Assembly: GCA_947501605.1 (NCBI GenBank)
Contig: CANMWZ010000032.1
Span: 1-48,972 of the forward strand
Direction of reading: 5' to 3'
Origin: Planctomycetota bacterium
GTDB taxonomy: Bacteria > Planctomycetota > UBA1135 > UBA2386
DNA: 48,972 bases
Positions 1 through 9,803 of this stretch are shown here, one piece after another. The stretch's first letter is position 1. Every line of letters begins with the position of its first letter. A program made the translations under genes and the position numbers. The notes below the pieces were generated by a model, which worked only from the letters and a program-made list of their open reading frames with translations, was not told the origin of the DNA and did not search any database.

Positions 1-671
1 TCGCGGTCGCGACGACCGAGCCGAGCGGCCAACCGATCGGCGTCGCGCTTCACCACGTCGAGCACGCTCGCGCGCGACGGATCGCGTTGCAGAGCATGGC
101 TGCGGAACAGCCGATCGAACACCAACCGCGGCACGATCTCCTTGGTCGCGGGGCGATCGGGCGCGGACCACGAGAGGTTGCCGCCGTAGACCGTCGAGTA
201 GCCCATGTCCTCCACTGGGTAGATCGGGTCGCAGCCAAGTTCGAGCGATGGCAACATCGTCCTCGAACCGAGGGCCGCAGCGGCGACCTGGTCCATCGAC
301 ACGCCGTTGTGCAGATCGCGCCCGCCGGTGCGGCGAATCTTGCAGCCGGTGAGCAGCGGCGCGACCTTCGCGTAATGACCATCGCCGTCGAAACTCTGGC
401 GATTGCAGAGTCCTGTGAGGATCGAGACCTCGTGACGACGATGCTGAAGCGGGGCCAACGAGTAGGACGGCAGCCAGCCGCCGTGACCGTCCGACTCGGG
501 CGTCCACGAACTCGGCAGCACGCCGTTCGGCATCACCAGGATCGCCATGCGCAGCGGCGGCGCGCGCATGGCCGCAGGCAGTCGTTCGTGAACGGCTTCC
601 AAGAAGGGCAGCGTCATTGCTGCCGACGCTCCGCGCAAGAACGCGCGGCGACCGAGGATCGGCAACCTCAT
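1..671 (-). CDS. DUF1552-family protein, 3' end runs off the window
   Basis: Manual translation from ATG at 671 gives MRLPILGRRAFLRGASAAMTLPFLEAV...LRMAILVMPNGV (Tat-like RR, then the LPFLE and PNG motifs). The start overlaps the stop of the upstream DUF1592-type gene (TGATG), the usual pairing. Confidence 0.85.
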   Translation of the reverse strand, partial: MRLPILGRRAFLRGASAAMTLPFLEAVHERLPAAMRAPPLRMAILVMPNGVLPSSWTPESDGHGGWLPSYSLAPLQHRRHEVSILTGLCNRQSFDGDGHYAKVAPLLTGCKIRRTGGRDLHNGVSMDQVAAAALGSRTMLPSLELGCDPIYPVEDMGYSTVYGGNLSWSAPDRPATKEIVPRLVFDRLFRSHALQRDPSRASVLDVVKRDADRLAARLGRRDR

Positions 672-7819: not shown

Positions 7820-8737
7820 CTACTTCTTGCTGGCTCCGCGCGCTTGCTCGAGCATCGCCCGATTGCGTTCGCGCATGACCGCCGGGGTCTTGTCGTCTTC
7901 CAACGCGTCAAAGGCGCGCTGCGCCAGTTCGGCGTCGCCCGACTTGGCCGAGGACGCGAGGACCATCTGCCAGAAGTAGGGCGCCATGTCGGCCGACGGC
8001 AGTCGCCCCGCGCGCACCATCGCGACGAACTTCTCGCCGACACCATCGGCGCCCAATTCGCGGGCCTTCCCGCGCCACACCCGCACCTCGCCGTCGACGA
8101 GGAACTGCTCGACCCTGGTCTTGTCAGCATCGTCGAGCTCGACGGTCTTCATGCGCTCACGTGCTTGCTCGGTCGTCATCATCTGCAGATCAAGCTCGAG
8201 CAAGAACAGCTGGCGCTCGACCTTCTTGTCGCCTTTGCCAGCAGCAGCGCGCAGGCTCGCCAACTCGTCGAGCTGAGCCCGCGTGCGCGTCAGACTCTCG
8301 ATCTTGCGCTGCAAGTTGCGCACGGTGACTTCGCCCGCACCATCCAGGAAGCAAATGCTCGGGAAGCCGCCAAAGCCCTTCTCGCTGAGCAGCTTGGGAT
8401 AGGGCTCGTCGTCGACCCGCGAGGTGTTGTGCAAGAACAGCACAACCGTCTTGCTGAACTCCACGAACGCCGGGGTGGAGAGCAAACTGCTCTCCAGCAT
8501 GTCGCACGGGCCTCAATGGGCGTAGCTGCGCGTGAAGTAGGCGAAGATTGGCTTGTTGGTCGCCACCGCCTTGGCGCGCGCGGCGTCGTAGTCGAGCATC
8601 CAGTCGGCCTTCTGGAACACGGACTTGGCCAGCTTCTCTTTGCGCAGCTCGACAAACTGCTCCTGGGTCTTGTTCTGCCCCGACAGCAACACGGAGAGCA
8701 AGGCAAACACGGCAGCACTTCGGAACATGGGTCGCAT
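7820..8737 (-). CDS. Secreted thioredoxin-fold selenoprotein (UxxC, Sec at codon 75) with a helical C-terminal region
   Basis: ORFs 8513-8863 and 7820-8500 share one frame, separated by a TGA at 8513-8515, giving KPIFAYFTRSYAH-U-GPCDML. AGGAG RBS precedes ATG 8737, with a signal peptide, a downstream GFPSICFLD cis-Pro motif and a SECIS-like hairpin. Confidence 0.85.
8476..8496 (-). promoter_or_regulatory. Candidate bacterial SECIS element
   Basis: Perfect 9-bp stem UGGAGAGCA-GUU-UGCUCUCCA starting 16 nt after the UGA; the loop begins with G. Confidence 0.75.
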
Positions 8738-8844
8738 GGGATCTCCTGGGGGGCTTCTCTGGCCAGCGTGCGCTGACGGATCGACGATGGCAACTCTACG
8801 CTTCGCGAGCGATCGTGTGCCAACCCGTTGCCCTGATCGGCCAC

Positions 8845-9237
8845 ATGACCTTCCGCCCTTCACTGTTCGCGCTGCTTGCCACCACCGCTCTTGTCCTCGG
8901 CACGCTCGGGATCAACTACGACGCGCTGCCGGAACGCGTGGCGTCCGACTTCAGCACCGCCGGAAACGTCACCGGGCACTCCAGCAAGGTGGCGTTCGCG
9001 ATCGGCATCACGGGCATCGCTGTCTTCGACTTCCTCGTGTTTGCCGGCATCGGTTTTCTGATTCGGCGACTGCCGCTCAGCCTGATCAACGTGCCTCACC
9101 GCGAGTACTGGCTCTCGCCCGAACGGCGCGAGGCAACGCTCGCGACGGGGACCAACCAGATGCTCTGGTTCGGTGCGGCCACGCAGCTATTCATGGCGGG
9201 CATCACCTGGATCTGGACTGGCTCCAAGGGACCTTGA
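8845..9237 (+). CDS. DUF1648-like membrane protein
   Basis: YDALPERVASDFSTAGNVTG motif, INVPHREYWL and three hydrophobic segments. Confidence 0.75.
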   Translation: MTFRPSLFALLATTALVLGTLGINYDALPERVASDFSTAGNVTGHSSKVAFAIGITGIAVFDFLVFAGIGFLIRRLPLSLINVPHREYWLSPERREATLATGTNQMLWFGAATQLFMAGITWIWTGSKGP

Positions 9238-9281: not shown

Positions 9282-9803
9282 GTGAATCGCCTGCTACTTT
9301 CGACCGTGTCGTTTTTCATCCTGCTCTGGTCCTGCGCGCAGTCGCCGGATCCCGCCCCCGTCGCCACCGCCGACGGCCTGCCGGCTCTGACTCCGCTCCA
9401 AGGGGAATGCGACTTCTCCACACCGCTGGTGCCCGGCATTCCCGGCAGCCCGGGCCACCTGATCCGCTCGCCGCGCAATCCGAACGGCGACAGTGAGCTC
9501 TCGTATCTCATGCGCCAGATGGCAGATGACCTGGAAGCGGCGCGGAAGGCGGTGGCAGCGGGCACGCGACCAGCGCCGCTGCTGCCGATCCATCGCCGCA
9601 TCCGGTGCAGTTGGCCGACCAAGCTCGACGAACGCAACGCGCAGTTCGATGGCATGGCACAGAGCTATCTCGCCGCGGTGAAGACCTTCGACGAGACGCC
9701 GACACAAGGTGCCTACAACGCGATCGTGCAGGGCTGCGTCAGTTGCCACTCGGTATCGTGCCGTGGGCCGCTGGATCGCATCGATGAGCTGGTTTGGCGC
9801 TGA
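9282..9803 (+). CDS. Lipoprotein c-type cytochrome with a C-terminal CxxCH (class II, cytochrome c'-like placement)
   Basis: GTG start, lipobox-like ILLWSC, a helical body and CVSCH near the C-terminus. Confidence 0.7.
   Translation: MNRLLLSTVSFFILLWSCAQSPDPAPVATADGLPALTPLQGECDFSTPLVPGIPGSPGHLIRSPRNPNGDSELSYLMRQMADDLEAARKAVAAGTRPAPLLPIHRRIRCSWPTKLDERNAQFDGMAQSYLAAVKTFDETPTQGAYNAIVQGCVSCHSVSCRGPLDRIDELVWR

Follow-up and report, generated by a model that had tools for sequence, protein, structure and literature searches.

A likely selenocysteine-containing, exported thioredoxin-fold protein family of Planctomycetota

UxxC proteins of the thioredoxin fold are the commonest class of bacterial selenoprotein, and both this class and the recoding mechanism that it uses are already known. 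Among the 119 families in Table 1 of a 2026 review (PMC13188914), the UxxC entries are Sec-Trx PF00085, PF13098 (‘thiol:disulfide interchange protein’), cd02966 (‘thiol-disulfide isomerase-like’), SaoT and HUIPC. Fig. 2 of the same review gives a consensus for the bacterial SECIS (bSECIS) with a loop of 3–9 nt, a stem of 4–16 bp, a G in the first two loop positions, a spacing of 16–37 nt and an MFE of −7.5 or lower. DsbH of Chlamydia pneumoniae (structure 2ju5; model NF043050), described in PMC5193440 as a reducing dithiol oxidoreductase, is an exported Thioredoxin_7-type protein. The Trx7/PDZ (NF041199) and VPGUxxT (NF041382 and NF041383) families are Thioredoxin_7-like and contain selenocysteine (Sec). 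In YbbN/CnoX (3qou, 3qdn) a helical domain comes after the thioredoxin domain; this protein is cytoplasmic and lacks Sec.

Here we describe a gene from a planctomycete contig of 48,972 nt, which as a whole is called the window below; planctomycete-type domains are present in it. We put at roughly 0.78 the probability that this is a hairpin-aided Sec gene for a likely exported DsbH-like enzyme, probably one that reduces disulfides of the cell envelope. The features of the gene are as follows.

7820..8737, minus strand: single gene, 305 aa with Sec75, from the read-through frame and the unbroken Cys or Ser orthologues that sister species carry at this locus
8743..8747, minus strand: Shine-Dalgarno-like AGGAG seen in the sequence, 5 nt upstream of the ATG at 8737
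8728, minus strand: alternative start ATG
8678..8737, minus strand: predicted Sec-type signal peptide, residues 1–20, with a basic n-region, a hydrophobic h-region and no lipobox Cys
8258..8614, minus strand: thioredoxin-fold domain, about residues 42–160, with Pfam Thioredoxin_7 at 45–132 and a cis-proline-type loop, G-F-P126
8513..8515, minus strand: in-frame TGA assigned to Sec75, first position of U-G-P-C, from homologue codons and the contigs of runs X9, X10 and X11
8504..8506, minus strand: Cys78, predicted resolving cysteine, a Cys in 97/97 TGA members and 13/23 non-TGA members
8476..8496, minus strand: predicted bacterial SECIS with a stem of 8–9 bp and a GU loop, −14.2 kcal/mol, 25 nt from the UGA to the loop G
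7823..8257, minus strand: all-helical C-terminal domain, about residues 161–305, of helical hairpins, with no clear structural match
7820-7822, minus strand: stop codon TAG, from the sequence

The frame from 8737 to 7820 contains one TGA, at codon 75; the residues around it read KPIFAYFTRSYAH-U75-GPC78, and the motif context is Y-F-T-R-S-Y-A-H-U-G-P-C. An initial annotation of the window had proposed that two same-frame ORFs are split here by a single TGA and that the usual gene callers would break the gene at it. Both points are borne out, since default calling returns 8513-8863 (116 aa) and 7820-8500 (226 aa) where the read-through product has 305 aa. GC3 is nearly equal on the two sides of the TGA (0.88 before, 0.86 after). 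The same TGA stands in the assembled contigs, as distinct from raw reads, of three of four runs (X9 and X10, DNA; X11, an RNA library that may come from the source sample), the fourth, X12, having no coverage of the TGA; the X11 contigs are uninformative on transcription level or strand.

The gene stands alone, with a convergent gene for a secreted protein on one side and a divergent gene on the other; a search around it gave neither a sigma-70 promoter nor an intrinsic terminator. Clustering of the flanks of 40 loci gave no neighbour conserved beyond the genus and no hint of a substrate; two large flank clusters were dismissed as apparent antisense readings of the gene's own sequence. Beside the gene, at about 9300-9803 of the window (plus strand), lies a small putative lipoprotein, conserved within the genus, whose C-terminal part has a C-V-S-C-H heme-binding motif and which has no Pfam match.

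The hairpin agrees with the bSECIS consensus in all four respects, having a loop of 3–5 nt, 8–9 bp, a GU and a distance of about 25 nt, at −14.2 kcal/mol. As in the E. coli fdhF-type SECIS, it lies inside the ORF with an apical G-U 25 nt from the UGA; it differs from that type in stem sequence, and the family lacks a conserved bulged lower helix. The initial annotation had described a 9-bp hairpin beginning 16 nt past the TGA. Its position and stem hold for this gene, where the loop is GUU, but the form found across the family is rather a stem of 8 bp capped by the 5-nt loop N-G-U-N-N, in which offsets +19..26 pair with +32..39 and the loop lies between.

Taken as a single sequence, the 66-nt region does not fold beyond chance (z = −1.67; 14/200 shuffles fold as well), and a genome scan for TGA plus hairpin returned 36 comparable cases among 4084 coding-like TGAs, mostly chance, while missing selD. 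The hairpin does exceed chance when judged against synonymous codon choice and across homologues. Of 5000 synonymous recodings of this gene only 8 have the full stem and GU loop and 48 reach equal stability. At least 7 of the 8 stem pairs are held in 85 of 97 homologues with TGA but in just 2 of the 23 without it. The loop carries GU in 81 of the 97 and in none of the 23; the codons that supply it are GGT, CGT and AGT, whose shares among their synonyms in the rest of these genes are 15%, 11% and 6%. Where a Leu codon and a Ser codon face each other with their third bases, the pair is G-C in 60 members, C-G in 26, a G-G or C-C mismatch in 6 and something else in 5. Changes on both sides of the stem number 57, against 19 ± 3 in shuffles (more than in all 500 of 500), a count inflated by the relatedness of the genomes. 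Paired cells make up 92.5% of the stem alignment and 38–62% in slid registers. The hairpin is broken in the non-TGA orthologues at the same locus, two with TGC (L024, L027) and one with AGC (L023). It is under RNA-level selection only where the codon is TGA.

Matches to the protein occur in 55 of 61 related genomes. We examined 110 loci, 30 of them returned directly and 80 as regions covering most of the better matches that remained, with weak short matches left out; these gave 120 alignments spanning the site, the gene itself and its paralogue included, after 6 partial alignments were dropped. As the genomes are related, counts and P values overstate independence. At the site, 97 have TGA, 17 have a Cys codon and 6 have some other codon, TGG never occurring, and a Cys stands at +3 in every one of the 97 TGA members. 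The dipeptide inside their motif is PP in 43, GP in 32 and TP in 10. The frame runs on for 226–306 codons past the TGA in most of them; three shorter ones have 72, 126 and 156 codons, one of the three lying at a contig end, and a fourth has 218. Three sister species hold orthologues with the same neighbours and an unbroken frame carrying TGC or AGC (the L024, L027 and L023 just named). The homologues are single frames with TGA, Cys or Ser, and not pairs of separate half-proteins.

Sec is absent from 23 of the 120, and 10 of these also lack the Cys at +3; catalysis is therefore dispensable in some copies. A FastTree phylogeny of 115 members, built with the site masked and rooted at its midpoint, has weak deep support; on it Sec is inferred to be ancestral, and the site has changed at least 11 times. 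Tandem copies of the family occur at eight loci (L032, L037, L047, L067, L074, L077, L101 and L114), often a Sec copy paired with a Cys or redox-dead copy, and seven of the TGA copies at the loci examined belong to one genome (G024). Redox-dead members of about 500 aa (P0033 and P0034, and those at L077 and L114) have Y/F-A-x-C at the site and a helical domain that is apparently duplicated. The genome of the window (G000) itself encodes a Cys paralogue with C-G-T-S-I-R-C and no SECIS (L129; C3:26567-27361, minus strand), which belongs to a small clade sharing that motif.

This genome (4.65 Mb, 66% GC, 91% complete) has the Sec machinery. Its selA, selB and selD exceed curated cut-offs in profile searches, and its selC is a tRNA-Sec with a UCA anticodon, an 8-bp acceptor stem, a long variable arm and a GCCA end; selD carries its own in-frame TGA with a similar hairpin. 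The Sec-containing selD adjoins selA (C4:41310-43483, plus strand), while selB and selC are apart from them, on C2 and C1. The commonest stop codon is TGA, which terminates 921 of 1111 long coding-like frames, so a global reassignment of UGA is rejected, and among the tRNAs found the only one with UCA is tRNA-Sec. The locus combines one frame, alternation of TGA with Cys and Ser, a covarying hairpin linked to the TGA and a complete Sec machinery; judged from sequence, its UGA is almost certainly decoded as selenocysteine within one gene.

Other candidate in-frame TGAs were seen in the same genome. Three are in thioredoxin-fold genes, all on the minus strand: C18:32545 (W-U-G-P-C, TlpA/ResA-like with a helical tail), C1:343603 (W-U-G-P-C, with a TlpA-like C-terminal domain) and C19:54980 (F-U-P-A-C, a membrane-anchored thioredoxin). 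Another is in a secreted FG-GAP/VCBS-like repeat protein, the repeat type assigned by eye, with N-W-U-C (L147/L151; C5:35543-36880, plus strand) and an 8-bp hairpin with an AGUUC loop. That protein has 21 matches in 15 of 31 genomes, each with one TGA, and the TGA is at the same site with a hairpin in 12 of 12 loci examined; it has no NCBIfam match and no such entry in Table 1 of PMC13188914. A dicodon scan returned mostly adjacent genes.

The thioredoxin fold followed by a helical C-terminal domain, as the initial annotation had it, is supported by a confident predicted model (AlphaFold, with Sec as Cys and the signal peptide removed; pLDDT 96.6, pTM 0.89). In this model the motif opens the active-site helix, and the all-helical domain then follows; a UxxC at that place and a consensus-type SECIS within the ORF are common to bacterial UxxC selenoproteins of this fold. 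Pfam PF13899 (Thioredoxin_7) scores 33.8 bits against a cut-off of 27 and matches 59 of 60 members, and Pro126 is near invariant. The commonest cis-Pro-type loop among the 120 homologues is G-F-P (71), the loop of DsbH. The nearest solved folds are 3ira (Z 12.6) and DsbH 2ju5 (Z 12.4, rmsd 2.6 over 116 residues), with human PDI, ERp and UAS domains scoring almost as high as DsbH; in sequence, the best match is again 2ju5 (E 2.8e-11). The helical domain alone has no Foldseek match at E ≤ 0.001, and its best match among solved structures is BamD (Z 8.1, rmsd 7.6), which is no proof of a new fold.

The protein is very probably exported, as had been proposed. A hydrophobic 9-mer is found near the N-terminus in 115 of 120 homologues and in 6 of 115 downstream control windows, by a crude hydropathy test that may take in untranslated sequence. 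Cleavage is predicted before Gln21.

Compared with DsbH, the protein is likewise Thioredoxin_7-type and probably exported, but it has Sec where DsbH has its first Cys. It also has two additions, a pair of helices near the N-terminus and a helical domain of 145 residues at the C-terminus. The DsbH model (NF043050) is matched by 49 of 60 members at E ≤ 0.01, while its cut-off is not reached (26 bits against 190). The cross-matches to the other Sec-containing models are weak. Trx7/PDZ (NF041199) scores 15 bits against 300, and that family has CxxU where ours has UxxC, with PDZ in none of the 60 members; VPGUxxT (NF041383) scores 25 bits against 275, with VPGU there and S-Y-A-H-U-G-P-C here. TsoB reaches 22 bits against a cut-off of 805. 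The best E-value of the 60 members across NCBIfam 20.0 is 2.9e-10, to DsbH, and no model in it comes near its cut-off for the protein.

PF13098 gives 16 bits against a cut-off of 27, and 29 of 60 members match it at E ≤ 0.01. Table 1 of PMC13188914 has no entry with a PF13899 domain or with this architecture; its two generic UxxC entries, PF13098 (WP_011366075.1) and cd02966, may overlap with the family. From what PMC13326102 says of BSepDB, its permissive tblastn could sweep members into a generic family. Passages of the deep-Sep paper (PMC12013277) and of a Planctomycetes genome paper (PMC4807772) do not mention such a family, and a literature search found no description of it. The proposal that the family is uncatalogued accordingly stands for NCBIfam 20.0 and the review table, and, allowing for possible overlap with the two generic entries, we consider it probable overall.

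The protein is very likely a thiol-disulfide oxidoreductase. A thioredoxin fold by itself does not fix the redox direction; because of the likeness to DsbH and the GP and PP dipeptides, active-site dipeptides of this kind being a pointer to direction, we lean towards reduction over oxidation or isomerisation. SelB would bind the GU-loop hairpin and deliver Sec-tRNA(UCA), and the signal peptide would direct the product to the periplasm. There the selenolate of Sec75, at the N-terminus of the active-site helix, may attack a substrate disulfide (or an oxidised cysteine), leaving a mixed selenenylsulfide that Cys78 would resolve. Re-reduction could come from the DsbD-type membrane protein of the genome, and the helical domain is likely the substrate-binding part. 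A DsbD_TM protein is encoded elsewhere in the genome (L146; C9:78751-79389, plus strand, within an 809-codon frame); its layout is two repeated N-terminal C-D-E-N-x-C domains, a membrane domain and a C-terminal C-A-N-C domain.

The main rival accepts the selenoprotein and makes it chiefly a disulfide isomerase or a redox-regulated holdase, like YbbN/CnoX or PDI, whose selenol serves protection or proofreading and not net reduction. YbbN/CnoX resembles the protein in domain order and total length, and the top whole-model Foldseek matches are indeed YbbN-type Trx+TPR proteins (E 6.8e-5), yet the whole-model match is poor (TM 0.23, rmsd 21 Å), as is overall superposition on YbbN/CnoX 3qou and 3qdn (TM about 0.25, rmsd above 21 Å). 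TPR proteins such as BamD are the best matches of the helical domain (Z 8.1), but at an rmsd of 7.6 Å, in the range usual for helical proteins; a Pfam search of 60 members gave no TPR match. Several paralogues keep a full frame without Sec or without both redox residues, a point in its favour, whereas the 97 Sec members all retain the +3 Cys. We regard this rival as quite unlikely.

A DsbA-like periplasmic oxidase, or a peroxidase or reductase of small molecules, is very unlikely. Sec is often used in peroxide chemistry, the predicted location is exported, and no conserved partner gene hints at a protein substrate. Against this, the DsbA, peroxiredoxin and GPX families match none of the 60 members, and with its GP and PP dipeptides and F-P loop the family looks more like thioredoxin and DsbH than like DsbA, which has a CPHC motif and a V-P loop.

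It is hardly credible that the UGA is Trp, Cys or a regulated leaky stop, or that the locus holds separate half-proteins or a pseudogene: databases do keep the downstream half as a 226-aa protein, and none of the best 150 cluster representatives contains a U, but most frames in the genome stop at TGA, no UCA tRNA other than tRNA-Sec was found, the codon alternates with Cys and is never TGG, TGA and hairpin recur together across many families, and a split would part the catalytic residue from the fold.

With a 60-sequence profile at E ≤ 1e-30 the family is found in 79 of 301 Planctomycetota genomes sampled, mostly with one TGA, and in 649 clusters at 50% identity, a large and apparently uncatalogued addition to the bacterial selenoproteome. 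A word-index contig search gave only 3 loci, far fewer than the HMM searches. Among the best 150 of the 649 cluster representatives, 51 have CxxC and 64 no recognisable site, many of the latter being fragments that start after it. NCBI names the fragment ‘hypothetical protein’ and the non-Sec form ‘thioredoxin family protein’. Present annotation strips the family of its signal peptide and catalytic residue, so that databases mostly hold headless fragments. Outside the order, selA is present in 71 of 71 carrier genomes against 46 of 71 non-carriers (the first 71), the carriers being kin and so not independent samples. Look-alikes in the Atlas from Verrucomicrobiota and Bacteroidota are leads only; the distribution counts cover Planctomycetota.

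The 97 aligned SECIS examples, with their covariation at synonymous sites, could train predictors. The Sec, Cys and Ser versions at one locus in sister species, where the SECIS decays as the UGA is lost, make a clean natural experiment. More speculatively, and we think it rather unlikely, the family may be a periplasmic Sec chaperedoxin of Planctomycetota, a selenium-based redox and folding system of the envelope in uncultured members. Were that true, the system would be one confined to Sec-decoding genomes, with at least seven Sec copies in some, and on the tree it would have decayed about 11 times, losing the SECIS and leaving Cys, Ser or redox-dead forms. Decay of Sec is seen even between species of one genus at a shared syntenic locus, and the family would then offer a natural series in which to ask what makes a lineage retain or give up Sec.
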